From: Zootoca vivipara
Lineage: Eukaryota
Length of the DNA: 64,000 nt
Direction: 5' to 3'
Assembly (NCBI RefSeq): GCF_963506605.1
Contig: NC_083277.1
Location: 4,464,001 to 4,528,000 of the forward strand
This document shows, in pieces, positions 1 to 55,946 of this stretch (position 1 is its first letter; every line of letters starts with the position of its first letter). The notes under the pieces are model-generated. The model was not told where the DNA came from, ran no database searches, and worked only from the letters and a program-made list of their open reading frames with translations. A program made the position numbers and the translations under genes.

Positions 1-6
1 TATCAT
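1..6 (-). CDS. Vmn2r: First two codons (ATG ATA) of a fourth V2R gene (V2R-0) running off the left edge
   Basis: Reverse complement of 1-50 (ttactgatgtcacaaggaaggacattgtcactggcgtcgctaggATGATA) aligns with the leader and start of V2R-2 (gtcactgatgtcataagggacgacactagccactgacattgctaggATGATA). The shared upstream module is present inverted at about 300-580. Confidence 0.75.
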
Positions 7-4998: not shown

Positions 4999-5229
4999 TT
5001 CTACCGGTAGGATCCAAGCTTAGTAAATAACAGTAGGGCAGGGCTTACCTCCCCCCCCAAAAAAATATTTTATTCAAGTTGGCATCTCTGGAACCAAGAA
5101 TGAAGTTGGCTTTGCGTACGTTCCTATATCTGTATTACATACAGCACCAAAGTTGGTTACTAAGAGTTCCCAGTGCAAAAGACTGAAAGGGAACAGCTTT
5201 ATGCCCCTGATCGCCAAAGTAAGCTTTCG

Positions 5230-5465
5230 AAAGTGTTTCTTCCATTGCAAAGTTTGCCACTTCCACTGGCCCATCTCGACCCTGAAACCCCGTTGGTGGT
5301 TTCTCGAAAACATGTTTTCTCTCCAGCTCTGCACCTGCCCAGGGAGCCAAGCAGAGAGTCCACGAGGTTGCAGACAGAAAACTTCTTCCCCCGTATAATT
5401 ATCAAAATCATAGTGGTGTATTCCTCTACTCACACCAAATCTTGTGGGATTCCCCCTGAGACCAA
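5230..5465 (+). promoter_or_regulatory. Conserved V2R upstream module, copy for V2R-1
   Basis: CACCTG 5332-5337, TAATTA 5396-5401 within tataattatcaaaatcatagtg, CCCCCTGAGA 5452-5461; homologous block upstream of every V2R in the window. Confidence 0.6.
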
Positions 5466-5695
5466 TAATCTAAACTTCAGAATCAAGGAGAAAATGAGTC
5501 AACATCTTGTAAGAAGAAGAATGATGCCACAAATGCTTCTCAAAATATTAAGCATCACTGAGAGACTGGCCTGAGGTTCAGGGCAGGCAGGGACTGTGGA
5601 GGTGGGAAGCTTTTTGTCGCTAGCTTTAGCTCTAAATCCGTGGCTAGAGCCCAGGTGTGCCACTGAAGTCACTGTTTGTCACAGTGACTGCTAGG

Positions 5696-8600
5696 ATGAT
5701 ATCACTTTTGCTGCTAGTGCTGCTGCTTTTGCCCGAGGCCGTCTGTGGGACTCAGGCGAGGAAATGCTCTGTGGATCTGATGCGGCTTCGAAATGAACCA
5801 GTGAATTATTACAGGGCGGGGGACCATCTCATTTGTGGGATCATCTCACCCAAAACTGCTTTATTTAAACCATACAACTTCTCTCAGCCCCCGTTAACCA
5901 TGATTACCGAGTAAGTAACTGCATACCACCTGATTGCTGGGGGGAAAAACATCAAATCAGTTAGCTGTTCATAACTTCCATGAGTTAGTGTCCCAGATGT
6001 GGCTCACCTTATGTATTGAGAGTGAGGAGACAGTGGTTCTCTCAGAGAGATTTATTTTTGTTTTTGTTTTTTTGTTAATGATATATGCAACCTTAGAGTC
6101 ATAGAATCATAGACTCATAGAGTTGGAAGAGACCACAAGGGCCATCCAGTCCAACCCCCTGCCAAGCAGGAAACACCATCAAAGCATTCTTGACATATGC
6201 CTGTCAAGCCTCTGCTTAAAGACCTCCAAAGAAGGAGACTCCCCCACACTCCTTGGTTGCAAATTCCACTGCCGAACAGCTCTTACTGTCAGGAAGTTCT
6301 TCCTAATGTTTAGGTGGAAGCTTCTTTCTTGTAGTTTGAATCCATTGCTCCGTGTCCACTTCTCTGGAGCAGCAGAAAACAACATTTCACCCTCCTCTAT
6401 ATGACATCCTTTTATATATTTGAACATGGCTATCATATCACCCCTTAACCTTCTCTTCTCCAGGCTAAACATACCCAGCTCCCTAAGCCGTTCCTCATAA
6501 GGCATCGTTTCCAGGCCTTTAACCATTTTGGTTGCCCTCCTCTGGACACGTTCCAGCTTGTCAGTATCCTTCATGAACTGTGGTGCCCAGAACTGGAAAC
6601 AGTACTCCAGGTGAGGTCTGACCAGAGCAGAATACAGTGGTACTATTACTTCCCTTGATCTAGATGCTATACTCCTATTGATGCAGCCCAGAATTGCATC
6701 TAGCAATCTATACCCTGCTAAGGAGAAGGCACTGCAGACTGAATATTTCTTCTCTAGTGCCAAGCATAAACCCACCACATCCTTAAGACACCCCCCTCAC
6801 TGCTGTGGCTGTCAGTGAATTTCACTGACAGAAGGGAGATGCAGGGAAATGGCTCAAGAAGTCTTTAAGGCCTTCTGGGGGTTTCCTTCACTAAGGACTC
6901 CATTGCCCATAACAAAGGGTGAAAGTTACATTACTCTTTGGTCAGCCACTTAGAAGTAAATCCCAATAAGCAAACTGGAGGTCACTCCCAGTTAAGTGGA
7001 ACCCGGGAAATCTATAACATCCTTTGATCAGCTTCCAAGCATATCGCAAACTTCTGAAATAAATTTGGTTCTGTTCTTTGAAAGCTGCGGACCTTCTATC
7101 CCAAACTATAAACTCTCCAATGTTTTTGGGAAGTGGCAAATTAATATCCAACTTGCAACCAGGGCCTTCTTTGGAGGTCTTTAAGCGGAGGCTTGACAGC
7201 CATATGTCAGGAATGCATTGATGGTGTTTCCTGCTTGGCAGGGGGTTGGACTGGATGGCCCTTGTGGTCTCTTTCAACTCTATGATTCTATGATTCTGTA
7301 TTTGTCCCCCAATAAAACATAGGAACAATTATTTGAGGATGCACTGCTTCGAGGCGCATTGTAAGGGGGAGGGCTTATAGGGAACAGCTCCCCCTCATCA
7401 GGTCGAGTTCCTCTCAGAGCAGCAAGTCCAGTAGCGGATCAGATTACAGGAATCAGGAAGTAGAGAGAGGGGGGGGAGAGGCTCTGACAGCATGAGAGAG
7501 CCTCAACACCGAGTAGGGAAGGAAGCAGCTGGGGAGGAAATGACGGGAGAGCAGTCATAAGGATGGCCCTTCCCCCCCCCCCGGACGCCTGAATTGAGGC
7601 GCACGGCACCCCATAGGGCGAGAGGGAGGTGCTTTGGGGTTCCCAAGCTGTTATGTTGGGCGCGAAACAGAAAGAACCCATTGCGAGGTTCTGACTCGGA
7701 CTAAGCAGACATGTTTTCCAGACTCTTTGCACTGTAAATAAGATGCACAATAAAAACACCTTCAAGACAAGCAAGTGTGGAGCGTCGTTACTCAAGAGTA
7801 GCCGCAAGCAGCCTGTCACAACTGCTGTATTTAATGCTTTGCAGTATCTCAGAACAGAAGTACTGGCACATCCTGTCTTTTTTGCTTGCTGTTCAGGAGA
7901 TTAATCTGGATCCTTCAATTCTACCCAACACCACTTTGGGCTACAACCTCTTTGAAACCTATTTCGATGGCAGAGTGGTTTCCAATGCAATGCTAGATGG
8001 ATATTGTGGTGGGGAAAGCAATATTCCAAACTACAACTGTGGAAGACGCAAGAACCTCTTGGCTGTTATTGAAGGGGCTGGATCGGACATTTCTACCCAT
8101 GTTTCTAGCATGTCGGGCATCTTCAAAATCCCACAGGTAGGTAGGGACTAGGATGGTCACCAATCAGGGAAGCTACAGTGGTGGATTTCCTGCATTGGAG
8201 GGACCTCTGAGCTCCCCTTCAACTCTAGGACTCTCCATTTTTGGATTCTCCTAAAATCTATATATATATATAAATGTAAAAGGTCCATGTTTGTGTTTTA
8301 TGGCCTTTCTCCGCAACCGCTTGACTGATTGCGTTCAAATTTGGACACAACGTCACATGCTACCGTAATATCCGATGGTTTGCGTACCATTTGTGTAGAC
8401 AGATGTCAAACCTATGGCAGGTAAAGCAGGTAAAACCCACTGTTTCCGAACACAAAACTCAGACAGCCGGGGATTCTGGGAGCACAGGAGATGTTGCACA
8501 ACAGCGGCCTCTAGTGGCGACTACACTGGTACTGCAGGTAGGAAATTTTCTCTCTCCACAACATCTCAGCTCGGCTTTGCAGACTAGGCAGAGTAGAGGT

Positions 8601-10644
8601 GGGGGCTCTCCTGGGTGGGAGATGAGGGGAGGAGGGGGCGGGAAAGGTCATGGCTTGGGACAGGGTGGGGCCAATCACAGGGATGAGCCACAGCAATGCG
8701 TGGCGGGCCAGCTAGTGATTTATAATAGCCTGATAGAAACACCCTGAAGCTGGTTTAGCCTATAAGTCCATCTAGTCTAGCATCCCATTTTCAGCCAAGC
8801 AGAAGCCACTTCTGGGAAGTCTGCAAGTGCGGTCTGAGTGAAAAAGCCACTTTTCCCACTTTTGATTCCCAACAACTGGCTTTCAAGACCATGGTGCCTT
8901 CAACAGTGGAGGGAGAACATGGCCCTTGCGGCTAGTAATCATGGATAGCCTTCTCCTCCTTGTCAAGTCAGTCCCTTTTTTTGCTTGTTATTAACATATA
9001 TCTGATATTCTTCCTTTCCTCGCTAGGTCAGTTATGGCTTTGCTCTTACTGATAAAACTCACTTCCCTTTTGCCTGCCAAATGGTTCCCAAAGAAGAAAT
9101 TCAATACTGGGGGATTGTCAAGTTGCTCCTGCATTTCAGATGGACATGGATTGGCCTTTTTGCTCCAGACAATGACAGTGGAGAAAGGTTCTTAAGTTCC
9201 TTAACACCTATGATGATCAGCAGTGGAATCTGTGTTGCCTTCTCAGAAAAAATACAGCAAAGGACTCTGTATCAAATTTCAATACTGAGTGAGCCACCTG
9301 TTACGTGGAGAAAAGTCAATGTATTTGTCTACTATGGGGACGCTTCCAATAGATTTGACCCAATCATCATGGTACAAAGGATACTTAAGAAGGTACAAGC
9401 TTGGGGGAAAGTCTGGATCACAACAGCTTTTCAGGACATCAACATGAACTTATCTTATGGTATTAATACCTTTATGTATATCCACGGTTCTTTGTCTTTC
9501 ATAATGAAGACTAGAAAATGGACAAAATATGACTACTATAAGCCACGGTCTGGCATAACACTACAGTTCTGGGATGAATCATTTAATTGTTTATGTTCGG
9601 AGGCTGTATTGCCCACGAAAGGTTGGATAAGATGCACAGAGAAAGAGAAACTGAAGGTTCTTCCCCAAGAGGAGGTTGAAAGGGCCCTGTCACAAGACAG
9701 CTACATTACTTACAGCAGCGTCAAAGCCGTGGCACTTGCCTTAAATTCTGCCTATTCTTCCAGATCCAAGCAGGTGTTGATGATGGGTAGAGGGGACAGG
9801 TTGGGACTTGAACGACTGCAGCCATGGCAGGTATTCCTCCCCACCCCTTGAATCCTGGTCCTGCACCCAGAATCCAATCCAATCCAATTGCCTCACCCGT
9901 GCCAGCATTTCCAAGGGATATCTAAATTGTATTTCTCCTATGCTATTTGGCTTGCCTTGGTGACATCGGAAGACATTCCATGGTTCAGTCATCATTCTCT
10001 AGTGATCAATTAAGAATGCAACTCAGCTTTCCCCCAATTCTCCACACACACCCCTACTTCCCTAAACTTCCTCTTCTGTTTTTTTTTTGGGGGGGGGTAT
10101 CTTGTTAATTTTGATGATCTGATATGTTGGAATATGATAAAAATGTAAAATCCAATAAAACTTTATATATATATAAAAAGAATGCAGCTCAGCTGTGACT
10201 GTCAAAAGCCAACAACATTATTCCCGTGAGTCCAGAAGTGCACTAGCCCTAATTTGGAGGAGACCAGAGTGAAAAGTGAAAAGAGATCAAGTATCCAATA
10301 GACTTCCATGTTTTCTCAGTTATGTTTTTTCTCATGTCAGTCCAGCTCCACCCTTTCTTAAGAAACATCCAGTTGTTTAACACCTCCAGGGGCGGATTGT
10401 ATTCGGATGAGAATGGAGAGCTGGCAGCTGACTACGATATTGTGAACTGGGTGCTGTTTCCCAATAAGTCTCAAGGCAGAGTGAAAGTCGGGAGCTTAGA
10501 GAGACAGGCAGCCTCACATTTAAAGCTCACCATTAACACAGAAGCCATTGTGTGGCCCTTGCAGTTTAAAGAGGTAAAGGAATTTTTTATGTGCTTCTTT
10601 CCCGCTGAGATTTATTAAACCCAAATTATTTACAGGGTTTATCT

Positions 10645-10676
<32 letters not shown>

Positions 10677-10677
10677 G

Positions 10678-10727
<50 letters not shown>

Positions 10728-13668
10728 TTATTTATACCCCGCCCATCTGGCTGGGTTTCCCCAGCCACTCTGGGCAGCTTACAACAGAAAAATGAAATAA
10801 AACAATTAAACATTAAAAGCCTCCCTAAACAGGACTGCCTTCAGATGTCTTCTAAAAATCTGGTAGCTGTTTTTCTCTTTGACATCTGATGGGAGGGCAT
10901 TCCACAGGGCAGGCGCCACCACCGAGAAGGCCCTCTATATGATGCTGTAAATTATTTTATTTTATTCATATGCAGACTATAATCTAGGCCTCACCTGCCC
11001 CACCCAAATTCGCACCATAAACTCTACAGTGTTGGGGAAATTGATTTGAACTGGAAAATTTGGTAATTTCCCACCAAGCTGGAGCTCAAACTGCATGCTG
11101 GAGTGGGGTTGGGTACACTGTCCCCAACCTTGTTTCCCCATGAGTCACTTTAAAGCCCTTTTTAAAAGCATTTTAAATTTGTGAAAATAAACAAGGGCAA
11201 ATAATGGGTTTTTTTGTGAGAGTGAATAGTATTACAGTGGTATCTCTGGTTAAGAACTTAATTCATTCCGGAGGTCCGTTCTTAATCTGAAACTGTTCTT
11301 AACCTGAGATACCGCTTTAGCTAATGGGGCCTCCTGCTGCCGCCACGCCGCTGCCACACGATTTCTGTTCTCATCCTGAAGCAAAGTCCTTAACCTGAGG
11401 TACTACTTCCGGGTTAGCAGAGTCTGTAAACTGAAGTGTCTGTAACCCGAAGTACTACTGTAACTCTGTATGATATAAATCTGCAAGATCCCAGTGGCAT
11501 CCTGATTTGATTGGTGATGAAAAATGCTGTAACAATCACCAATAACATGCATCCCTGACCATCCTTGTTTAACATTTTTAATGAAGTTTCCATGCTCCGA
11601 CATCCAGACATTTTTCTGCATAAAGTCATCAATCACCCTCTGGCTCAGTGCCCTCCACCCAGTGCCAATAAAAACTGCAGAGATTCCCTTTTCTTAACAC
11701 CTGTTTCCTGTCCTATCAGGCCTCTGATATTTCCTTCATCCTTTGCTCTGCCATTGTTGGAGCAGCAAAAGTTGTTTCTAAACTAGATACCGTACCGTAC
11801 CTATACCGTAGATACCGTACTTGTGCATCAGCAGTATTTACCTGGGGGGGGGGTTAGGGTCCCTCCACACCTCATGGCTCAATTCCACATCTCTAACCCT
11901 TTCCCCTTGATGCTCCTTCGCTTAATTGCCAGATTGTGCCTTGCGCCAGGTGTACTGAAAGCTGTCGCCCTGGATATGCCAAGGTAGTTCAAGAAGGACA
12001 ACCGGTTTGCTGCTATGCTTGTGCACTGTGTGCTGAAGGGACAATCTCCACTCAAGAAGGTGGGTAACGTAGAGGGGAAGGGCATTCCTTGGGAGAATAT
12101 GAATAGAGATTTACTCAGAGATCTAAGAGGCCAGCATGTTGAAAACCATCAGAAAATACAGGGAATAAAGAGAAGAGGGATTAGAGAGGGAATTTGCTAT
12201 ATAAACAAAATGTAAATGTAAAAAGGCACAAGGAGAATAATAGAATCAGAGTTCTGGTTACAGGTAGGTAGCCGTGTTGGTCTGGATCGAAGTAAAATAA
12301 AAAAATTCCTTCAGTAGCACCTTAAAGACCAACTAAGTTTTTAGCAAATCGTTTCCGGTCATCAACAGCTATCAGTCAGTCAATCACCCATTTCCACCAC
12401 CCTTCTGAGTGATCCCCCCTCCCCATCCCCACCCCTCCCCACCCCTTCTCTACATAAGTGCCTGGAAACTTCCATTTCACTGTATCTGAAGAAGTGTGCA
12501 TGCACACGAAGAATCAGAGTTAGAAGGGACCCCGAGTCCAAACCCCTGCAACTAAAGGAAGCTCAACTAAAGCATCCATGACAGATGGCCATCCAACCTC
12601 TGCTTGAAAACCTTTAAGGAAGAGGAGCCCACAAACTTCCAAGAGAGTTCGTTCCACAGTTGAACTGTACTTTCAAGCGTATATATTTTGGAATGTAGCA
12701 GAACACGTAATATTATGGTTCTAAGCTTCATGTTAGGACTACTGAACGCTCTCCTCTTCCTTTCAGATGCAGACTATTGCACCACATGTCCAGAAGATCA
12801 GCACCCAAACGAGCACCAAAATCAGTGTGTCCCCAAGGTTATCACCTTTCTTGCCTATGAAGAACCTTTGGGGATCACATTGGCTTCCTTTGCCCTATTC
12901 CTCTCCTTAACCATGGGCTTTGTTTTCGCCATCTTTGTTAGATACATGGAAACTCCCATAGTCAAAGCCAATAACCGAGACCTCTCCTATATCCTCCTCT
13001 TCTCCCTTCTGCTTTCCTTTTTGTCCTCCTTCCTCTTCATCGGCCGCCCAAGGAAAGCGACCTGCCTTCTCCGTCAAACAGCCTTCAGCATCATCTTCTC
13101 TGTTGCTGTTTCTTCTATGTTGGCAAAAACCATCACGGTGGTGCTGGCCTTCCTGGCTACAAAGCCAGGAAACAAGGTTAGAAGATGGCTTGGGAAAAGT
13201 CTGGCCAACTCCATTGTCATTGCCTGCTCTAGTGTCCAAGTTCTCATCTGCACCATCTGGCTGGGGACCTCTACCCCATTCCCAGTCTCTGACATGCACT
13301 CCCAGCCTACAGAGATTATCCTGCAATGTAATGAAGGGTCTGCTGCCATGTTTTATGGTTCCCTCAGCTATATGGGCTTCCTGGCTGCCATCTGCTTCAC
13401 AGTGGCTTTCCTAGCCAGGAAACTGCCTGGGTCCTTCAATGAAGCCAAGCTGATCACCTTCAGCATGCTGGTCTTCTGCAGTGTTTGGGTGTCTTTTGTT
13501 CCTACCTACCTGAGTACAAAGGGGAAATACATGGTAGCTGTGCAGGTCTTCTCCATCTTGGCCTCCAGTGCTGGGCTTCTGGGCTGCATCTTCATTCCCA
13601 AGTGCTACATTATTGTGCTGAGAGCTGATCTGAATACGAAGGAGCATGTCACAATGAAATCGAAGTGA
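5696..13668 (+). CDS. Vmn2r: Vomeronasal type-2 receptor V2R-1, 855 aa; join(5696-5910,7845-8136,9027-9830,10346-10573,11933-12059,12767-13668)
   Basis: Signal peptide [18 protein letters not shown]; Venus-flytrap motifs ([30 protein letters not shown]); cysteine-rich exon 5; 7TM exon with TPIVKANN and [11 protein letters not shown]. All introns GT-AG, phases compatible, total 2568 nt with no internal stop. Confidence 0.95.
6094..6699 (-). mobile_element. CR1 LINE, 5'-truncated, young family
   Basis: ORF2 C-terminus ([13 protein letters not shown]...LEKRRLRGD) plus 3' UTR and ATTCTATG-type tail; near-identical to 22805-23472 and 50273-50953. Confidence 0.95.
7165..7297 (+). mobile_element. 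CR1 3' tail fragment
   Basis: ggggttggactggatggcc...tatgattctatgattct; absent from the paralogous intron of V2R-2. Confidence 0.85.
7360..7807 (+). mobile_element. Probable solo-LTR fragment
   Basis: Begins TGTAAG, AATAAA near the 3' end, absent from the paralogous intron 1 of V2R-2; no TSD found. Confidence 0.5.
8257..8715 (+). mobile_element. Non-autonomous Helitron
   Basis: 5' TC(TA)n, 3' hairpin gccacagcaatgcgtggc followed by CTAG, inserted between A and T with no TSD; empty site visible in V2R-2 intron 2 (about 30560-30580). Confidence 0.8.
10647..10935 (-). mobile_element. L2 3' end with expanded (TAA)n tail
   Basis: ataccccgcccatctggctgggtttccccagccactctgggc block shared with the L2 copies at 38.6k, 40.5k, 47.9k and 63.6k. 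Confidence 0.85.
11235..11460. mobile_element. Tc1/mariner (pogo/Tigger-like) MITE
   Basis: TA-cagtggta...tactactg-TA. Confidence 0.75.
12254..12510. mobile_element. Penelope-like element remnant inserted in a CR1 tail
   Basis: gttacaggtaggtagccgtgttggtctg end and ctgaagaagtgtgcatgcacacgaa motif; 12-bp duplication agaatcagagtt on both sides. Confidence 0.7.
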
Positions 13669-14273
13669 GACATCTTATTTAAGATATCTTTATTGTCATT
13701 GTCCCCTTGCGGGAACAACGAAATTACTGTTCTTCTTTTTAAGATTGAAGAGATTATTTTTTGATGTTCGTGTTAGCTGCCCTTTTTAGCAAGCAGTTCT
13801 CTTAAGTTGAGATGCCACAAACTGGACCTGAGGCCTTTATTCACCATTAAATTATGATGTTAACTAAATGAAGCCTCTTATTCTCAAAATTTCCAGTTCT
13901 GCGGATAGATTTGACTTTAAAATATTTCTTTCTTAAACCCTGTTCAGCTGGTGGGCTGTCGATGAAATGTGTGGGGTCAGGCCACTGTCTAATTTACTCG
14001 TTACAAGCATGTCAGAAGATAGATGCTCCTTTTTCCCTTTTGGGGGAGGGAGAAACTGGACAGAAGTAGCTTGGCAGCGAATTTGAAAGGGAATCCCTTA
14101 ATCAGAGGAAGAGTGGAGAGATGAGGACTTACAGCCTTAAGTGATGATACTGAGCATTAAACAGCTCAGGATCACAATACTTCATGGACCACTCTCTCCT
14201 ATGAACCTATCTGGACCCAGAGATCATCATCTGAAGCCCTTCTTCGTGTGGCTCCTCCAGGAAAGGTCCAGAG

Positions 14274-14517: not shown

Positions 14518-15078
14518 GTGGGGCCTACAGGGGGGTCTGAAGGAGGACTTTGAAGGCCCATTTAGGGCCTACAGGGGAGTCAGAAGGGGGACTCTGAGGG
14601 CCCATTTCACAGACTAAGCCACAGGGGGCCTACAGGGGACTCTGAAGGGGGACTCTGGGGGGCCCATTTAAGAGACTAAGCCACAGTGGGGCCTACAGGG
14701 GAGTCTGAAGGGGGACTTTGAGGGCCCATTTAAGAGACTAAGCCACAGTGGGGCCTACAGGGGAGTCTGAAGGGGGACTCTGAGGGCCCATTTAAGAGAC
14801 TAAGCCACAGTGGGGCCTATAGGGGAGTCTGAAGGGGGACTCTGAGGGCCCATTTAAGAGACTAAGCCACAGTGGGGCCTACAGGGGACTCTGAAGGGGG
14901 ACTCTGAGGGACCATATAAGAGACTCAGCCAAAGTGGGGCCTATAGGGGTCTCTGAAGGGGGACTTTGAGGGCCCATTTAAGAGACTAAGCCACAGTGGG
15001 GCCTACAGGGGACTCTGAAGGGGGACTTTGAGGGCCCATTTCACAAACTAAGCCACAGTGGGGCTTACAGGGGAGTCT
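14518..15078. repeat. 62-bp minisatellite, about 9 copies
   Basis: Unit gtggggcctacaggggagtctgaagggggactctgagggcccatttaagagactaagccaca; unit starts at 14686, 14748, 14810, 14872, 14934, 14996 and 15058. Confidence 0.95.
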
Positions 15079-16077: not shown

Positions 16078-17211
16078 CTAACACTTATATGGTTTCTCCC
16101 CAGTATGAATTTGTTGATGTTTTGTAAGACTTCCACTCTGACTGAAGTTCTTTCCACACTCCATACATTTATAAGGTTTCTCCCCTGTGTGTGTTCGATG
16201 ATGTGAATTCAGTTGCCCACCCATACAGAAGCTCTTTCCACACTGCATACAGTTAAATGGTTTCTCCCCAGTGTGAGTCCGTTGATGAATTCTTAGTTCT
16301 CCACTCTGACTGAACCTCTTTCCACACTCCATGCATTTAAATGGTTTATCCCCCGTGTGAGTTCGTTGATGAATTCTAAGATGTCCACTCCTACTGAAGC
16401 TCTTTCCACACTCCATACATTTAAATGGTTTCTCCCCAGTGTGAGTCCGTTGATGAATTCTTAGTGCTCCACTATAAGGGAAGTTCTTTCCACACTCCAT
16501 ACATTTAAATGGTTTCTCCCCAGTGTGAGTCCGTTGATGAATTCTTAGTGTTCCATTCTCCGTGAAGCTCTTTCCACACTCCATGCATTTAAATGGTTTA
16601 TCCCCCGTGTGAGTTCGTTGATGAATTCTAAGATGTCCACTCCTACTGAAGCTCTTTCCACACTCCATACATTTAAATGGTTTCTCCCCAGTGTGAGTCC
16701 GTTGATGAATTCTTAGTGTTCCACTCTGACTGAAGCTCGTTCCACACTCCATGCATTTAAATGGTTTATCCCCCGTGTGAGTCCGTTGATGAATTCTAAG
16801 TTTTCCACCCTCTGTGAAGCCCTTTCCACATTCCATGCATTTAAATGGTTTCTCTCCTGTGTGAGTCTGTTGATGAATTCTAAGATTTCCACTCTGACTG
16901 AAGCTCGTTCCACACTCCATGCATTTAAATGGTTTATCCCCCGTGTGAGTTCGTTGATGAATTCTAAGATGTCCACTCTGACTGAAGCTCTTTCCACACT
17001 CCATGCATTGAAATGGTTTCTCCCCCGTGTGAGTCCGTTGATGAATTCTAAGGTGTCCACTCTGACTGAAGCTCTTTCCGCACTCCATGCATTTAAATGG
17101 TTTTTTAACGGCTTCTTCATTATTTGCATTGAAATGCCCCCCCAGATTTCTGACGGCCTTCTCCATTGTCACCTTTGGAGGGTGAAGGGGGGAGGAAATC
17201 CTATTTGTTTT
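16078..17211 (-). CDS. Terminal exon of a tandem C2H2 zinc-finger gene, 12 fingers (possibly pseudogenised; upstream exons not identified)
   Basis: 12 repeats of CxxC-x12-HxxxH with TGEKP/TGDKP linkers; polypyrimidine-AG acceptors give exon starts at 17211 or 17172; no KRAB, SCAN or SET exon recognised. Confidence 0.8.
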
Positions 17212-28597: not shown

Positions 28598-28838
28598 AGT
28601 GTTTCATTACCACAAAGTTTGCCAAGTTCACCTGCTCCCTCACAGGTCCATGTCAGACAATGGAGCCCCATTGGTGATTTCTCAGAAACACATTTTCTCT
28701 CTAGCTCTGCACCTGCTCATTGCACCATGCAGAGAGCCCAAGAGGTTGCAAACAGGAAACCTCTTCCCCTTTATAATTATCAAAATCATAATGATTCCTC
28801 TCTTCACACCAAAGCTCTAGGAATTTCCCCTGAGACCT
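28598..28838 (+). promoter_or_regulatory. Conserved V2R upstream module, copy for V2R-2
   Basis: CACCTG 28710-28715, TAATTA 28774-28779, TCCCCTGAGA 28826-28835. Confidence 0.6.
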
Positions 28839-29118
28839 ATATTCTAAGCATCACAATCATGGGCAACGTGATGTAACTTCTTGCAACGAGCTTGGAAGAA
28901 TAACTGCGACATAAATACCTCCTAGCCTACGCTTCTCAAGATAATAAGTAAATATCTTGCAGCTGAGAGCCAGGTCTGGGATGGAGGGCGGGCAGGGATT
29001 GTGCACATGGGAAATTTCCTCTTCCTACCTTTAGGTCTGAATCCGTGTCTTGAGTCCAGTTGTGTCACTGAAGTCACTGATGTCATAAGGGACGACACTA
29101 GCCACTGACATTGCTAGG

Positions 29119-32100
29119 ATGATATCCCTCCTGCTTCTGCAGCTGCTGCTGCTAATGCCACAGGCTGCCTGTGGGACTCAGGCGGGGAAATGCTCTGTGA
29201 ATCTGATCTGGCTTCAGAATGAACCAGTGAATTATTACAGGGCAGGGGACCACCTCATTAGCGGAATCATCTCACCCAAAGCTGCTGTGTTTGAGGAACA
29301 CCTCTTCTCTCAACCTCCATTAATCAGGCCTCGTGAGTAAGTACCAGGATCCAACACTGCCCCACCTGTGTATAGACTGTTCCCAGGTACCAAGGACAGC
29401 CCTTAGTTTCTGATACCCCATGTCAGGTTCTCTCCCGATATTGAGTGTGATGGCTCCTCATTTCATATGAGTTGTTTATCCAGCATTCATTGTGGTTTGC
29501 TTGTACAAAGCTTAAACAACCCTTAAATTATATCTTAAATTAATTTAAGATACTATTTTAATATCTTATATTAAAATATTATCTTATTATATCTTAAATT
29601 ATATCTTAAATTAATTAAACAACACTTAAATTATCAAGCATTCTTTCTGATTTGTTAGGTCCTTTGGAGCGCTTCACAATCTCTTTTTGTGTTACTGACC
29701 CTGAAGAATCTACCATCATCAGCAAACTTGGCCACTTCACGGCTCAGTCCTAACTCTAGATTGTCCATGAACAAGTTAACAAGTGCCTGTTTCTCTTACC
29801 CAGTGTAAAAGGTTGAACATTCAATTTCAACATAGGAAGATGCATGAAGCCACAACTTTTTAACACACCCTTTGATCAGCTGCCAAGCATTTCACAAACC
29901 TCTTTAAAAAGTCGATTTTGTTCTTTAAAGACTCTCTGAACAATAACCTCTCTGCTGTTTTTCAAAAAGTGGCAAATAACTATCCAACTTGTAGCCATGA
30001 TCTGTATCTCCCCCCCAATAAAAACATAGAAACAATTACCCAGAGATACCCTGTTTTGAGGTGCTGGGAAGGCCTTTAGAAAGAATATGGCATTTTGTTT
30101 TCACTGAATGGATAATGGCAGCCTGTCACGAGTGTTTCATTTGATGCTTTGCAGTATCTCTGAAGAGAAGTATTGGCACATTCTGTCCTTCTTGTTTGCT
30201 GTTCAGGAGATTAATCAGGATCCTTTGATTTTACCCAACATCACCTTGGGCTACAACCTCTTTGAAACCTATTTTGATGGCAGAGTGGTTTCCAGAGCAG
30301 TGCTGGACGGGCATTCTGGTGGGGGAAAGAATGTTCCAAACTACAGCTGTGGAAGACGCAAGAACCTCTTGGCTGTTATTGAAGGGGCTGAATCGGACAT
30401 TTCTACCCATGTTTCTAGCATGTTGGGCATCTACAAAATCCCACAGGTAGGAACCAGGATAGTCACCAGTCAGGGAAACTACAGTGGTGGATCGATTGGA
30501 CTATGTGAACCCTGAGCTCCCTTCCTACTCTAAGGATTCTCCATTTTTTGAAGGATCCCCTTAAAACTATTTACAATAGGCTCAAACTTGCCTGAGGTGC
30601 CTTAGAGCCAGTGTGGTGTAGTGGTTAAGAGCTGTATACTTGTAATCAGGGGAACCGGGTTCGCGTCTCCGCTCCTCCACATGCAGCTGCTGGGTGACCT
30701 TGGGCTAGTCACACTTCTCTGAAGTCTCTCAGCCCCACTCACCTCACAGGGTGTTTGTTGTGGGGGAGGAAGGGAAAGGAGAATGTTAGCCGCTTTGGGA
30801 CTCCTTCGGGTACTGATAAAGCGGGATATCAAATCCAAACTCTTCTTCTTGTTGTTTATTTTCACATATTTAAAATGCTTTTTAAAAGGGCTTTATTTTT
30901 AAAAAGTGACTCATGGGGAAACTAAGTTGGGGACAGTGTATGGGACCCAAATCCAAACTCTCATTCTTCTTCTTCTTAAAAGCATAAGCATCTGGATCAG
31001 GTTATAGGTCCATCTATTCCAGCATCCTGCTTTCAGAATAGCCTACCAGAAGCCACTTTCAGGAAGCCTGCAAATGAACCCAAGCGCAACATCACTCTCC
31101 CCATTTTTGATTCCCAACAACTGGAATTGAGAGGCAGACTGCCCTCTGGCTAGGGATCATTTGTAGTCTTATCCTCCCTGAGTCTACCTACTCTTCTCTG
31201 AAGGCCATGAAATTTGTGGACATATTGACATCTTGTGGGGGCAAGTCCACAGTTTGACTATGCACTTTGAAGAAGCATTCTAAATCCTCCAAGATTCAGG
31301 TTTATTGGATGGCCTTAAGCCCTAGTTTTATGAGATACAGAGAAAATGGTCTTTTTATCCTTTCTCCACATCATGAATACTTTTACAACTCTATCATGTC
31401 TCCTCTGCTCTCTAAACTAAAAAGATCTGAAAAATTTTAACCTTTCCCCATAGGAGAGTTGCTCCAAACCGGGAATTCCCAAGCTTGGGTCTCCAACCTT
31501 TTTTGGACTACAATGCCCACCAATGCTAACTAGTGATGATAGACATTGTAGTCCAAAAACAGCTGTCTTTAACATGCTTTTGGTGGATTGTGGTGCATGG
31601 GGGGGGTAGCCTGCCCCTCACTGACATGGCCTGAACAGAGGTTGAGTTATTTTCACTTGTTATTAACATACATCTGATATTCTTCCTTTTCCTCACTAGG
31701 TGAGTTATGGCTTTGCTCTCCATGATAAAACTCAGTTCCCTTTTGCCTATCGGATGATCCCAAAGGAGAAAACCCAGAACCTGGGGATTGTCCAACTCCT
31801 CCTGCATTTTGGATGGACGTGGATTGGAATCTTTGCTCCAGACAATTATAATGGAGAAAGATTCATCAGTTCCATAACACCTCTGATGCTCATCAATGGA
31901 ATTTGTGTTGCCTTCTCAGAAAAAATAGTTTATCAGAATCTATACCAAATCGCCATGCTGAATGAACCACCTGTCATGTGGAGAAAAGTCAATGTATTTG
32001 TCTACAGTGGAGACTCTTCCAATACTTTTGGCATCATCATTAGGGTCCAAAGGATACTTGAAAAGATACAACCTGGGGGAAAAGTTTGGATCACAACAGC

Positions 32101-45900: not shown

Positions 45901-47022
45901 CAATTGTTGCTTTCGTCCTCGATATTGCACCCTGAAGGTCCCCACCCCCATTGTAGGGACCTTACGTTTCTGGAAGTCCCGGAGGGTGAATGGGGCCGGC
46001 CTTAGTTTGGGACCCCCATTAGGGCACAGTTCCCTTAATGTTCGGGCCGAGATTATGGATAGAGTTGAACCCGTGTCCAGCTCCATGCGGCATGGGGCTC
46101 CCTCTATCTGTACCTCTATATAAATTTTCTCTGTGCTGGGATGGGGCAACTGGAATACCTGGTAGTCCGTGATCTCCGTCGAGTTGCCTTGGTGCATGGT
46201 GCCGTGTGACCTGGGGCTCCTGGGTCGGTCATCTGATGCTTGTCGACGGGTGAGTCGAGCCCGACACACCCGGGCGATGTGTCCCAATTTTCTGCACTGC
46301 CTGCACTCTGCGTTGCGGAAACGACAGGTCCTCCTCTCGTGGTTCTCCCCGCAGCTTGCACAGTTCCCTCCTTCTCGTCGAGGCTGCTGTGGTGTGTGTG
46401 CTGCTTGAGTGCGCCGCTGTACTCGGTGTACTTCCTCCCTGTCAGATTCGGATTCGTCGGTGAGGTCTTTGTGGTAGACCCTCGGTTGGGATGGCGGGGC
46501 CGGTCGTGCCTCTTGCGTTGACCTCTCGGCGGCTTCGGTTGCCAGGGCTTCCTCCAGAGCAATCTGGAACGTGAGGTCTTTTTTGGCGTAGAGGCGTCGT
46601 TGCAACATCTCGTCCCTCAGGCCACCGACGAGGCGGTCACGAAGCATGTTCTCCAATTCTGAGAAGTTGCATAACCGGGCGGCTTGGCGGAGGGAGGTCA
46701 CAAACCCAGTTATGGTTTCCCCTGGGGCTTGCCGCTTTGCGTAGAAGGCATTTCGGCAAGCTACCACCGAGGGCTGTGGTGAAAAGTGCTCCTTCAGCCG
46801 TTCCATTATTGTTTTGTAAGAGACGGTAGCGACATCTCTAGGTGCAAGGAGAGCCCGGGCGATTTCAAACGTCTCCTCTCCACAGACGCTGAAGAATGTC
46901 GCCCTCTTCATGGCATCGTTGGTGACTTCTTTCGCTTGCAGGAGGAAGTTGAAACGGGCGGCGTACCCTTCCCAGTCTCCTGATGCTGGTTTGAATGGCA
47001 AGAAGCTGCTGTCGGTTGCCAT
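42952..47022 (-). CDS. Gag-Pol polyprotein, 1356 aa (Gag with zinc knuckles, protease, RT, RNase H, integrase)
   Basis: CASCGENHERRTC and CRQCRKLGHIARVC; LDTGS; LDLAQAY...FFDD; CDASPYGIGAVL...TDHKPL; HETH...CQTC, VDF/SDNG/AER integrase triad; RT-RH-IN order is that of gypsy. Confidence 0.97.
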   Translation of the reverse strand: MATDSSFLPFKPASGDWEGYAARFNFLLQAKEVTNDAMKRATFFSVCGEETFEIARALLAPRDVATVSYKTIMERLKEHFSPQPSVVACRNAFYAKRQAPGETITGFVTSLRQAARLCNFSELENMLRDRLVGGLRDEMLQRRLYAKKDLTFQIALEEALATEAAERSTQEARPAPPSQPRVYHKDLTDESESDREEVHRVQRRTQAAHTPQQPRREGGNCASCGENHERRTCRFRNAECRQCRKLGHIARVCRARLTRRQASDDRPRSPRSHGTMHQGNSTEITDYQVFQLPHPSTEKIYIEVQIEGAPCRMELDTGSTLSIISARTLRELCPNGGPKLRPAPFTLRDFQKRKVPTMGVGTFRVQYRGRKQQLDLLVVKGPYVSLLGLAWFGPLGLAVTGVNRTSLQVDVDAICKEFPGVFDGALGRYTGPPIALQLDPAVRPIRHKARRVPFALKPRIDEELDRLVEQGVLEPVPNAPWETPIVTPVKPNGSVRICADYKCTINKALTAHAYPVPVVSHVLATLAGSKIFGKLDLAQAYQQLPVDEATAEAQTIVTHRGAFRVKRLQFGVSVAPGIFQNLMDSLLKGIPGVTPFFDDVLIAGPTPEEFEDRLRSVLHRFQTAGLKVKREKCLLGVPQVDFLGFKVDAEGVHPTGDKVRAICEAPAPKSKPELQSFLGLLNFYHAFLPHKAAVAEPLHRLLDKRAPWVWGQRQRAAFQAVKDLLVSNSVLAHFDERLPVVLACDASPYGIGAVLGHQLPDGREVPVAYFSQTLAAAERNYSQIDKEGLAIVKGVKKFHDFLYGRPFTIVTDHKPLLGLFAPEKQTPQVLSPRVLRWSIFLAGYQYALIHRPGKAMGHADALSRLPLPETGPDPAPAQEVMTLELLPDRPIQAQEVAHHSTKDRVISRVLDWVWRGWPSSSPGPEFAGYTNRKHELSAHKGCLLWGSRVIVPQPLRKRVLTALHETHPGVVRMKALARSYVWWPGIDREIEAWVQHCQTCKESRPDPPRAPVQPWESARHPWSRLHVDFAGPFQGKTFFIVVDSYTKWLEVALVPSTSTAAAIRVLRKLFATHGLPDTLVSDNGTAFTSEEFQTFTAQNAIRHIRSAPFHPATNGQAERMVRTTKDSLRRITQGDWEYRLAAFLLAQHSTPSTTTGRSPAELLMGRRLATRLDRLHPDRAQDEVVVGKGRNPRTFVAQDPVYAKNFGAGPAWVPATVTKVTGPVSYEVLTEGGQCWRRHCDQLRRRFPGGTREESGTEGSQGDSRAVRPVEREGWAGEAEAVGTEGRPEAGRTPEPESQPSGSVAPDQTAPAQPAASEHEPEPEPLTKEHPRPQRTRRRPADLGDYECNFPGRTGT

Positions 47023-47131
47023 TCTGGGTTCCTTGGGTCCTGGAGCTGAAGCCTGGATGCACGGTGCGATGCAGCGGTGCAGCAGGTGGCGGTGCTGCGG
47101 TGCAGTGCGTGGTGGCGGTCAGCTCAGCAGG

Positions 47132-47149
47132 ATCCCACCTTCGTTGCCA
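47132..47149 (-). other. Primer-binding site, probably tRNA-Ser(GCU)
   Basis: TGGCAACGAAGGTGGGAT one base from the 5' LTR; matches my recollection of vertebrate tRNA-Ser(GCU) 3' ends (...AUCCCACCUUCGUCGCCA) at 17 of 18 positions. Confidence 0.75.
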
Positions 47150-47905
47150 GTGAAATATACTCGGAGTCGAGAGTGAATTTCATGCTCTTTATTCAGCTCA
47201 TAGTCATCAAGGAGAAGAAGAGAAGACGAATGGCTCTTTTCCCAAAACCATCTGCTTATATACATTATTTACACAATGGGCCTTGCGTGATTGGCTACTT
47301 CAGGGCTACACCTGTGGGCCAATTATATTGTGGATTGACTTCTGCCTGCAGCCTGATTGGCTGCTCCTACAGGCCAACCAGGTAGCAGATTCACTTCTGC
47401 CAGCCGCCTGATTGGCTGCTCCAGCAGGCCAATCAGGTTGCGGATTCACTTCCACCTGGAGTTGGATTGGGTAGCTCCCGCTGATTCTGAATCCTATTGT
47501 TCTAGGATTCAGCTCAGTACATAACAGGTGGAATCTTCTTTCTTGTAATTAATTGGCACCTATGACTAGCTCACAAGAAAGATGCATGCTTTTCCTTGAC
47601 AGAAGAGGGAGACACTGGACAGAAATAGTGGCGGAAGGGGTTTGAAAAGGAAACAGTTGAAGGAAATCATCTTCCACCTTCGTACATAATAATTTCCCCT
47701 TTTAGACACAGTTTGTGAGTTGGTACAAGCCTTGCCTTTGCTCCTCAGCTTTCTCTTTCTTGGGTTACTTAATTCTAGCTGTATGCTTCATTGGGGAACT
47801 TGATTGGAAGTGCTACAGAATTGGCCTCCACCGTCACTTACGGACACATGGAAGACAATCTTACTTGGCTATGAGTGGTTACCGAAGAAGAAGCTGCAAT
47901 AAACA

Positions 47906-49420: not shown

Positions 49421-49655
49421 AAGTGTTTCTTCATTTCAAAGTTTGCAAAGTTCAGTCACACAACCCATCGCTGACCCATCTCAAACTCTGAAATCCCATC
49501 GGTGATTTCTTGCAAACATGTTTCCCCTCCAGTTCTGCACCTGCACAGACAGACCTGGCAGTTGCAGTGGTAAACTTTATTTCTCATATAATTATGAAAA
49601 TTATAGTGATTTATTCTTCTCCTGAAACCAAAACTCCAGGGATTTCTCCAGAGCT
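49421..49655 (+). promoter_or_regulatory. Conserved V2R upstream module, copy for V2R-3
   Basis: CACCTG 49538-49543, TAATTA 49589-49594, actccagggatttctccagag. Confidence 0.55.
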
Positions 49656-49871
49656 CAGTAAACATCCACCATCAAGGGTCGTATGAGTCAACTTATCCCA
49701 TGGATTGCAAAGTGACATAAACCCTTCTCAAAATTATAAATAAATATTGTTTATTAATAAGCCTGAGGTGAGATTTCGGGCAGGCTGGGTCTATGCCAGT
49801 TTATTCCACTGCCTTTAAATCTGAATCAATGGCTGGTCTGAATGGAGGTGACTGTCTCTGGTGCTGCTAGA

Positions 49872-52800
49872 ATGATATCCCTGCTCCTGCTGGTAATGTG
49901 CCAGGCAGTCTGGGGGATGCAGAAGGCAAAATGCTCGTTCAATCTCTCCTTGTATTCACAGGAACCAGTGAATTATTATAGGTTAGGAGACTACCTTGTG
50001 AGTGGAGTCGTCTCTCCAAAACTTGCTGTATTGGAACCCTATGTTTTCTCCCAGCCACCTTTCATTGGGTTTCTTGAGTAAGTAACTACATGCTGAAGGA
50101 GGTGATTGCGCCCCACCTGCATTCTGACTGACCCCAGCTAACAGGGGGTGAAAGACTATATTGGTGTGAGTTGGGGGGAAGGTGTTGGGCAGCCAGGCCA
50201 GTTTCTTGATAATAATGGGTGGGTCACCCTCCCACAACTGGCTGGTAGGTAGGTAGAAAGATGAAGACACCTGGAGACACCTGGCTTGAGAGCAGTACAT
50301 GTGAAAAGGATCTAGGAGTCTTGGTAGACCACAAACTGGACATGAGTCAACAGTGTGATGCAGCAGCTAAAAAAGCCAATGCAATTCTGGGCTGCATCAA
50401 TAGGAGTATAGCATCTAGATCAAGGGAAGTAATAGTACCACTGTATTCTGCTCTGGTCAGACCTCACCTGGAGTACTGTGTCCAGCTCTGGGCACCACAG
50501 TTCAAGAAGGATACTGACAAGCTGGAACGTGTCCAGAAGAGGGCAACCAAAATGGTCAAAGGCCTGGAAACGATGCCTTATGAGGAACGGCTTAGGGAGC
50601 TGGGTATGTTTAGCCTGGAGAAGAGAAGGTTAAGGGGTCATACGATAGCCATATTCAAATATATTAAAAGGATGTCATATAGAGGAGGGAGAAAGGTTGT
50701 TTTCTGCTGCTCCAGAGAAGCGGACATGGAGCAATGGATTCAAACTACAAGAAAGAAGATTCCACCTCAACATTAGGAAGAACTTCCTGACAGTAAGAGC
50801 TGTTCGACAGTGGAATTTGCTGCCAAGGAGTGTGGTGGAGTCTCCTTCTGTGGAGGTCTTTAGGCATATGTCAAGAATGCTTTGATGGTGTTTCCTGCTT
50901 GGCAGGGGGTTGGACTGGATGGCCCTTGTGGTCTCTTCCAACTCTATGATTCTTAAATAAACCATATATCAAAAGCGCCTGGAACCCCTTGAATCTTGCG
51001 CCGCTCAGAGGTTTAGGTAAATTCAACAGCATTATCTGTTTCCCTGGTCAACCACTCTTCTTACTTTCGCCCTGAGTTTAGTGCAATGCTATTTTTCTAA
51101 TGAAAGAGGTGTAATGGCCCCCACCTACCTACCAACAATGGCGATGGCACCCACCTGAGAGGTTCTGGAACTGAGTTCCAGTGAGCTCTGGCTGGTGGGG
51201 GGAAAAGCCCTGGTTTAGTGCATACGACGGCCGCACAGGAGCACAGTGCGTCATCAGGCAAATAATTTCTGATTCAAATCTTTCAGAAAACATGTGGGGT
51301 TTTTTATTTTTGATTTTCCCTTCCCTCTCTGAAGGACCCAACCCCTACCCTATAGCTACTGGTAGAGTTAGTGCCCCAGTTGTGACACTGTGAAACTGAA
51401 TGGCAAATACTAGGGTTGCCATATTTCAATAAGTGAAAGTTATTGAGAGTTCTTGCTCTTTTGGGGGCAAAGTTGTTCAGCCTTTTGGCTAAATCTTTCA
51501 AAAAAAATGTACAAAAAATGTACAAAAACAAGATATTATACAAACATATGAAGTCATAGAGGGAGTGGTCCGTAATGTCTCATATCCAGGAACTCATATT
51601 CAAGTTATTCTAACAGGTCTCTCCTCAATGAGACATGGATGCCTGGAACAGGTGATATATTCAAAAGATCTTGAGCCCATTGAAGAAGTCTTACCAATTA
51701 CCTGCAACGACACCCTCCTTATTATCATGTCTTAATTCTTGTACTTGCTTTCTTCGCTTATCTAATAAAGCAAAACAGTACATATTCCATTATACTTCCA
51801 TTATACTCTTCATTTATTAAAGAAAGAATGTGGCATCTTGTTTCCACTGAGAGAAAAATGGGAGGTTGTCATAACTGTTTGTTTGTTTGTTTTGCTTGCT
51901 TGTAGAACTTCTCCTACAAGATACTGGCATGTCCTGTCTTTCTTATTTGCCATTCATGAAATCAATCAGGACCCCAATCTCTTACTCAACATCACCCTCG
52001 GATACAACCTCTTTGACACCTATTTTGATGGCAGGCTGGTTTCCGCTGCCATGATAAACCTGCGTTCTACTGGAGAAAAGAGTGTTCCAAACTATTTCTG
52101 TGGAACAAGGAAGAATGCATTGACTGTTATTGAAAGGGCTGAATCTGACATCTCCATCCAGATTTCAAGCATGGCAGGCATTTATAAAATCCCACAGGTA
52201 TGGACTTGGAGATTCCATAATAGTGGATGGTTTCTTTCGATGCCTCCCACTTTTCTTTCTCCCATCCGGACGTCGGTACAGGACTCCATATACTAAAAGG
52301 TCTAGGCACAGGAATACCAGTAGCATTTTTCCTTGTGCCATCAAATTGTTGAATCTGTAGTTGTGGGTTGAAGGGAGGTCAGTTGGTGGTATGGGGTCTT
52401 TTCAATGTGCTGTTGTATTGTGAGGTTGTATGAATAGTGGTTGTATGAGGTACTTTCTTATTTTCTTTACATTGCAATGTAGTTGAAGGAAAATTCCAAG
52501 TATGGTTGATACTTGGCCAATAAATTATTCTATTCTATTCTATTCTATTATTCCTGATGGAATTGTCTGTATTTGTGCCTTCGATATTTCAGCTGTAAGA
52601 AACTTCCACCCATCTTGGACTCCCTTCTCTGGGCTCTCACCCAGTAGTTCCTTAAGCTTTTTGAAATCAGCCTTCCTCGTGCAGAGTGCATATCCCTTTC
52701 CTCTGTATAATGAAACCCAGGAACATGACGATTGCCACCCCCCTCAAGCTTCCCAATACTTGCCAATTCATGGCGCAGTTCCTCCCTGCTAGTGAGAGCC

Positions 52801-55800: not shown

Positions 55801-55905
55801 GGCTTCACCCTACCTGATATTAGAATACGACCTTAGGGTTCACACTGAGTTTTTATATGTGATGAAGCTGGCTCAGCTGATCTCCAAAATATTGAAGGAG
55901 AAAGT

Positions 55906-55946
<41 letters not shown>

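Follow-up and report, generated by a model that had tools for sequence, protein, structure and literature searches.

A non-coding block recurs upstream of the V2R genes in the window examined here, that is, in the whole stretch of 64,000 nucleotides that was analysed (G000:C2:4464001-4528000). The window lies inside a very large V2R array, and the locus raises the question of whether the block is a control element shared by these receptor genes or a likeness of the kind that paralogues retain. Recurrence of the block alone is expected of paralogues; any excess over paralogy has to be drawn from column identity, window alignments and the exclusion of repeats. For the same reason the surprise is limited, since conserved promoters among paralogous chemoreceptor genes are expected. 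V2R choice, unlike V1R choice, has been proposed to depend on combinations of transcription factors including Pou2f1, Pbx2, Tcf4 and Atf5 (PMC11630819; here and below, citations refer to the available parts of the texts). For this question the block offers a short, position-fixed target at the level of single bases, in a lineage where V2Rs dominate chemical sensing. If it is a shared promoter, it provides a testable handle on the switching-on of V2R genes, and it could help to flag V2R genes that have lost their promoters.

The V2R genes of the window and their upstream modules

A first look at the array gave 737 candidates for the 7TM exon, 129 of which were scored. Within the window, genes B (5696-13668), C (29119-38422) and D (49872-60512) lie on the forward strand and have open frames of six coding exons and about 852-856 residues (855 plus stop in gene B); the length of exon 5 is assumed in C and D, where the donor was unmatched. 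Among the exons tested, exon 3 of gene B matched PF01094 (ANF_receptor), and the last exon matched PF00003 (7tm_3) in all three genes. The window genes thus have the layout of class C GPCRs, with six coding exons, a signal peptide, ANF_receptor and 7tm_3. Within class C we take them to be V2Rs, judging by exon layout and cluster size. Gene A (L004) is located on the reverse strand head-to-head with gene B, and each of the two has one copy of the module. Only the start of gene A falls into the window (1-6, ATG at 6), and its exon 1 runs on to the left. A fifth module, belonging to a further V2R exon 1 (L003), was seen at G000:C2:4528149-4528345, about 150 bp past the right end of the window.

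The module of gene B spans positions 5230-5465 (+), of which approximately 5300-5465 is constrained. Its elements are, in order, the 10-bp palindrome AAACATGTTT (5308-5317), which marks the 5' edge of a repeat-free zone; an E-box CACCTG (5332-5337); the family-wide core (5394-5417), a TAATTA homeodomain-type (HD) site followed by an AATCA-3N-TGATT inverted pair, whose second half is imperfect in this gene; and two imperfect O/E-like sites in tandem (5440-5461). A TATA-like position with the sequence CACAAAT follows at 5528-5534. The order is the same in gene C (28686-28916, +), with a palindrome variant at 28686-28695, the E-box at 28710-28715, the HD core at 28772-28795, the O/E-like sequence at 28813-28835 and CATAAAT at 28910-28916. 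In gene D (49514-49722, +) the corresponding positions are 49514-49523, 49538-49543, 49587-49610, 49633-49654 and, for CATAAAC, 49716-49722. The reverse-strand copy of gene A (193-459, -) contains a palindrome variant at 459-450, the E-box at 433-428, the HD core at 370-347, the O/E-like sequence at 325-303 and CATAAAT at 199-193.

A preceding sequence-only reading had reported these four copies, each in sense with its gene, and both position and orientation were confirmed; self-BLAST of the block-spanning regions yielded E-values from 4e-119 to 3e-13. The string CTGCACCTGC is present in all four copies, which also match the HD and O/E consensus strings that had been proposed (the O/E string is the second of the two tandem sites of gene B). 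The distances from TAATTA to the ATG are likewise as reported: 362 bp (A), 300 bp (B), 345 bp (C) and 283 bp (D). No copy is broken by a repeat, the nearest detected one lying 303-779 bp upstream of the palindrome; a short repeat at 5035-5091, seen in the comparison with contigs of other organisms, escaped this test. The palindrome AAACATGTTT, the inverted pair and the TATA-like box are additions to the earlier list of elements.

Distribution of the module among V2R genes

A broader survey took in 119 of the 150 exon 2 matches that had been scored (551 candidates), with 9 kb analysed at each locus; this sample is skewed toward relatives of gene B. Exon 1 could be located in 115 of the 119 loci, the exceptions being L037, L059, L101 and L127, which are without an exon 1 in 7 kb. 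Four further loci had no module match within 1.2 kb and were excluded from the 111-gene sets. The sampled genes comprise 83 members of the clade to which the window genes belong (near clade) and 32 distant genes on C13 and C17 (far clade).

In the near clade, 80 of the 83 genes have the module in sense ahead of exon 1, mostly 250-550 bp before the ATG, as found by means of a profile that had been seeded on 24 BLAST matches; these seeds are included in the set. All 32 far-clade genes are preceded by an alignable version of their own, as detected with a far-clade profile. Such own-clade profiles are circular. When the profiles were exchanged, at a threshold of at least 10 bits, the far profile detected the module in 46 of 83 near genes and the near profile in 10 of 32 far genes; downstream, reversed and five-fold shuffled controls gave 0 matches. 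From other subclusters 20 extra loci were taken, 10 of which were dropped for want of an exon 1. Among the remaining 10 genes the profile reached at least 8 bits in five, the PWM exceeded its shuffles in five, and one or the other test was positive in seven. In L144, L151 and L156 the module was detected by neither profile nor PWM. L144 (G000:C6 27.216-27.220 Mb) is an isolated V2R-like gene with exon 1, the cysteine-rich exon and the 7TM exon within about 4 kb and with no match to exon 2 or 3; it may be an internally deleted copy. Among distant genes, scattered upstream similarity matches were also noted, with small piles at -3500 and -5750.

The same searches bear on whether the block might be a fragment of a dispersed transposon. 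The ATCATAG stretch of the HD core resembles what is presumably a CR1-type tail repeat, and a retroelement tail at L157 scored 10.2 bits. Nevertheless, each of the 24 genomic BLAST matches of 5230-5470 has a V2R exon 1 downstream in sense, and all 29 matches of the far-clade module fall in one V2R cluster. A 16-base pattern of the core occurred 64 times and its reversed control 27 times; the excess is located in the V2R clusters (C2, C12, C13). Contig depth is about 2 on the block and up to 4e5 on the flanking repeats. The absence of the block away from V2Rs is deduced from two BLAST searches and one pattern, in which common words were skipped, so that the counts are lower bounds. A transposon fragment is therefore extremely improbable, in agreement with the earlier reading: the BLAST matches are V2R-linked, the depth is like that of single-copy DNA, and the block is free of repeats. 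Separately, an origin of the core from a CR1 tail was considered and rejected, because the far-clade form is unlike that tail.

Three near-clade genes, L065, L076 and L109, lack the module. The coding sequence of L076 is broken; in L109 a retroelement lies just before the TATA-like box, and no start codon is found at the usual place (2.5 kb upstream examined). In L065 the module region is deleted relative to L060, and exons 1 and 2 are without a visible lesion. With coding lesions in two of the three (L076 and L109), these natural losses agree loosely with a function of the module. Second module-like matches on the same strand, 1.2-4.9 kb upstream of the ATG, were observed for L077, L080, L088, L098, L100 and L106; these may stem from partial duplication or be the modules of undetected neighbouring genes. 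In L072 (G000:C2 7.25 Mb) exon 1 is present twice, at a distance of about 3 kb, and the module precedes the upstream copy.

Conservation beyond paralogy

Equal 140-bp windows were compared in all pairs of 110 genes, a score of at least 50 counting as a pass; the pairs are not independent. At CDS distances of 0.3-0.45 the module passed in 85% of pairs, compared to 11-13% for intron windows. At distances of 0.6-0.8 (2249 pairs) the values were 57% for the module, 0% for three intron windows, 1% for the upstream flank and 92% for exon 1, and at 0.8-1.1 the module (58%) was level with exon 1 (55%). Beyond 1.1, that is between the clades, just 2% of pairs passed, and homology at this depth is therefore visible only with profiles.

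Column identities within the near clade follow a similar trend: 0.84 for the palindrome, 0.75 for the E-box and 0.73 for the HD core, compared to 0.60 for 4-fold sites and 0.53 for the spacer. Across clades, the palindrome (0.62) ranks first and the HD core (0.58) is on a par with codon positions 1+2 (0.57), followed by the E-box (0.45), the 5'UTR-like region (0.39) and 4-fold sites (0.385). The O/E columns put forward by the sequence-only reading are indistinguishable from neutral positions, with identities of 0.59 within the clade and 0.41 across clades. When changes were counted on the CDS tree, the cores showed 0.08 changes per taxon versus 0.12 for 4-fold sites in the near clade, a modest margin, and 0.14-0.15 versus 0.17 in the far clade; only 21 and 27 such columns entered these counts.

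Repeats provide a further measure. Repeat cover, which is about 0.2 further upstream, amounts to 0.00-0.02 between the palindrome and the donor of exon 1, and several insertions end at the palindrome or no more than about 60 bp from it. Two of 111 modules are touched by a repeat, compared to 16 of 111 upstream windows and 13 of 110 intron windows.

These data bear on two alternatives. One of them regards the block as leftover similarity of recently duplicated genes that is devoid of function. This would suit the four window genes, which form one subfamily in the tree and whose flanks and 5'UTRs can still be aligned, and it would suit the neutral behaviour of the O/E columns. However, the module outlasts the windows taken from introns, the flank and the pre-ATG sequence in each of the distance bins, survives the deepest split sampled and excludes repeats, which makes this explanation highly improbable. 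The earlier reading had made its case dependent on cores that are better kept than paralogous introns, and on this point it was upheld. According to the other alternative, the upstream blocks are held alike by gene conversion between neighbours rather than by selection, as raised by Stewart and Lane for some V1R promoters (PMC1955453). In only 30 of 79 genes is the nearest neighbour the same by module and by CDS (among the top three in 55 of 79), the rank correlation is weak (-0.31), and the pair L061/L046 looks like an exchange. Yet among distant pairs, module similarity is flat with respect to proximity (median 57 at less than 200 kb, 53 at more than 2 Mb and 71 on other contigs), the longest identical runs in 150 sampled pairs measure 6-24 bp, and conservation is punctate, with 0.73-0.84 in the cores versus 0.53 in the spacer. 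Conversion as the main cause is very unlikely.

Contigs of four other organisms cover the block of gene B, from 5200 to 5715-5832, with about 92% identity. Because this value is far above that of the closest paralogue (73%), the contigs are likely orthologues. All four organisms have a T at 5530, which completes CATAAAT, and a T at 5452, which completes a full O/E site TCCC-NN-GAGA. Differences shared by at least three of the four fall on 2 of 146 core positions and on 31 of 476 other positions (Fisher p=0.011, counted by hand in 40 of 142 rows), a hint that they avoid the core; this also speaks, weakly, against conversion.

Taken for what is observed, the block is a conserved non-coding element that has been copied along with each V2R gene and has been kept better than the introns.

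Sequence elements of the module

Positions were counted in separate alignments of the near and far clades, as a joint alignment of the 111 genes misplaces the far-clade TATA region. The family-wide core is the AT-rich homeodomain-type site YAATTA with the inverted pair AATCA-3N-TGATT. YAATTA occupies the homologous place in 56 of 80 near and 20 of 32 far genes. An exact inverted AATYA-3N-TRATT after YAATTA occurs in 31 of 83 and 6 of 32 genes, compared to at most 0.3 in shuffles, and an AAAGCTC(A/C)AG-like tract follows the inverted pair by 20-30 bp in both clades.

The remaining elements are less general. The palindrome AAACATGTTT is the best-kept element of the near clade, typically 60-90 bp before the core, and is exact in 38 of 80 near genes versus 2 of 32 far genes. 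CACCTG follows the palindrome, at the position seen in gene B, in 35 of the 80 near genes; in the far clade, 12 of the 32 genes have it after the HD core. Due to this different position relative to the HD core, the E-box is not positionally homologous between the clades, though enriched in both, and the E-box of the earlier reading keeps its place in those near-clade genes only. The exact O/E sequence TCYC-NN-GRGA was found in 14 of 83 near genes (5.1 in shuffles) and in 1 of 32 far genes (1.2 in shuffles); with one mismatch allowed there was no enrichment. At the homologous place, 6 of the 80 near genes and none of the 32 far genes have the exact form, a relaxed form is present in 34 of 80 and 2 of 32, and the specific string of the sequence-only reading occurs in 5 of 83 near and 0 of 32 far genes. 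Of the proximal control grammar that it had proposed, the constrained, V2R-linked module with a homeodomain-type core is thus retained, and neither the O/E site nor the E-box is supported as a family element.

A TATA-like box follows the core in about a third of the genes and is missing in approximately 60%. Its distance is characteristic of each clade: 25 counts among 71 near genes fall at +140-179 and 11 counts among 28 far genes at +80-119 (two adjacent bins in either case). The near clade has a second peak of 10 at -220.

Several assignments of factors were considered. The palindrome fits patterns that we take to be those of FOX, Iroquois or p53-family half-sites. A p53-family response element consists of two adjacent RRRCWWGYYY decamers. 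A single decamer of this type was counted in 48 of the 80 near genes and in 3 of the 32 far ones, and the consensus, as judged by eye, is without a second adjacent decamer. Mutants of p73 have vomeronasal defects (PMC3062774). With one half-site evident and its rarity in the far clade, p73 is a weak lead only. A GATA reading of TTATCA was discarded, as its frequency is not above that of shuffles (68 versus 58.9 of 83).

The module as a putative V2R promoter

The TATA-like box at a fixed offset and the precedents of V1R and OR genes suggest that the block is probably the proximal promoter of V2R genes, family-wide and under purifying selection. In mouse, V1R genes have upstream islands ("peaks") that are better kept than the surrounding non-coding DNA, and 5'RACE has placed V1R start sites inside these islands (PMC1955453, PMC3247230). 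They are the closest precedent for taking such an island to be a promoter; the V2R block has likewise outlasted other non-coding DNA. The V1R peaks are 0.5-1 kb long, lie kilobases upstream of the coding exon and can be aligned mostly within subfamilies, whereas the V2R block comprises about 150 bp, is located 250-500 bp before the ATG and is detectable across deep clades and contigs.

Proximal promoters of mouse OR genes contain HD and O/E sites; TATA is present in about 39%, and O/E is dominant with an enrichment of about 7-fold (PMC3247239, PMC12547500). The V2R module resembles them in its short AT-rich proximal region, its homeodomain site with a TAAT core and a similar fraction of TATA boxes, and it also belongs to a large family of which one gene per neuron is expressed. 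It differs in the scarcity of exact O/E sites (6 near genes and no far gene, as given above), by which it departs from the OR type, and in the fixed order of its sites, which form an alignable block directly before coding exon 1. Neither the palindrome nor the inverted AATCA/TGATT pair is listed for ORs in the available parts of these two papers. In a third case, mouse Fpr-rs1 has co-opted V2R regulatory sequence, and sequence at a V2R first exon suffices for basal vomeronasal expression (PMC7873101). The part of this text that was covered defines no motifs.

A different way to read the position of the block is that it opens a non-coding 5' exon or UTR, with TTTTCTCCAG serving as splice acceptor and the true promoter further upstream, as in V1R and OR genes. 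A pyrimidine tract with YAG is indeed present in all four window copies, and 39 of the 80 near-clade genes show the pattern at the corresponding place; furthermore, 5'UTR exons occur in 37 of 39 mouse V1R genes (PMC3247230). On the other hand, 41 of the 80 near genes lack the AG (e.g. CTCTCA, CTCCAA, CTCCGG), and just 3 of 32 far genes show the acceptor pattern. The implied exon would be rich in upstream ATGs (1.5 per 100 bp), the upstream flank falls to background similarity, no Rfam match was obtained for 5000-6100 at E-values up to 1, and the TATA-like box keeps its offset downstream of the block. The acceptor is therefore unlikely, and the promoter reading is preferred.

A promoter of this kind might work as follows. 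A homeodomain factor, of the Lhx2, Emx2 or Dlx type to judge by consensus strings, would bind the TAATTA core, and a second factor would occupy the adjacent inverted TGAT/TAAT half-sites. Accessory sites specific to each clade (palindrome, E-box, weak O/E half-sites) may tune activity. The TATA-like box 80-180 bp downstream would set the start site within coding exon 1, about 100-300 bp ahead of its ATG; for gene B, the start is predicted near 5555-5560. Upstream ATGs in the predicted 5'UTRs show only a slight depletion, with 180 versus 208 expected in the near clade and 86 versus 104 in the far clade. The start tags of mouse V2Rs lie near the annotated 5' ends (PMC3927265). In three RNA runs (unspecified tissue, about 6% of each scanned), no coverage fell on the block or on most of gene B, which is uninformative either way.

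In the literature searched, which included few subscription journals, no motif analysis of V2R promoters, or of any such promoters in squamates, was found. Only one review used the phrase "V2R promoter"; the promoter studies otherwise dealt with OR and V1R genes. The available parts of PMC12400810, PMC9525060, PMC12294341, PMC4154679 and PMC12506533 yielded no V2R promoter motif analysis either. Promoters of V2R genes, those of mouse for example, may nevertheless have been described before.

A possible role in receptor choice

The shared core would let hundreds of genes use the same vomeronasal activators. In snake, non-C V2Rs are expressed in a mutually exclusive manner, and family C is broadly co-expressed (PMC3590772). 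A candidate for a family-C gene was found in a CaSR-like paralogue, whose exon 3 is 44% identical to that of a CaSR-type gene and about 25% identical to those of genes B-D; judged by this similarity, it is a likely family-C V2R. Near its first exon there was no profile match at 7 bits, and the best PWM score was 6.4; CaSR and two T1R-type genes reached PWM scores of at most 4.4. Exclusive expression of non-C genes in snake and the absence of the module at this candidate make a role in singular choice plausible. Deep divergence alone could explain that absence. That the block mediates the choice of one receptor per neuron is accordingly a tentative proposal, with the odds somewhat against it.

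A more specific version is more speculative still. The HD site and the inverted TGAT/TAAT pair may be an ancient cis-element in the promoters of hundreds of singularly expressed squamate non-C V2Rs, absent from the broadly expressed family-C gene, and non-C genes might compete through it for one limiting activator complex. The clade-specific palindrome and the mobile E-box might then represent the combinatorial code that has been proposed for V2R choice in mouse, where Pou2f1, Pbx2 and Tcf4 are tied to V2R subsets (PMC11630819). These three factors would fit the AT-rich, TGAT and E-box sites, which is a match of names.

Neighbouring sequence

Between genes C and D, a young LTR retrotransposon (42565-47526) has two 377-bp LTRs that are 99.7% identical and an open frame of 1388 codons with RT, RNase H and integrase domains. 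Between genes B and C, an exon encoding a C2H2 zinc-finger array (16081-17211, -) consists of 12.7 copies of an 84-bp unit, and a tandem array of 8.3 copies of a 62-bp unit (14518-15078) is located between gene B and this exon. The last exons of genes B and C (12680-13687 and 37434-38443) are 92.7% identical, compared to 83-84% in the exon 2/3 regions; stronger constraint or local conversion may be the cause.

Elsewhere, two adjacent class C GPCR genes, L166 and L167 (G000:C6 80.98-81.00 Mb), are T1R-like; together with L171 and L173 we take them, judging by similarity, to be four T1R-like genes on C6. A V2R subfamily at G000:C2 5.09-5.19 Mb (L070, L082, L083, L086, L098) has lost the usual start codon before the signal peptide in all five members, which have an in-frame Met about 40 codons upstream. 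The module of this subfamily carries a short deletion, and a retroelement tail reaches up to the palindrome or close to it.
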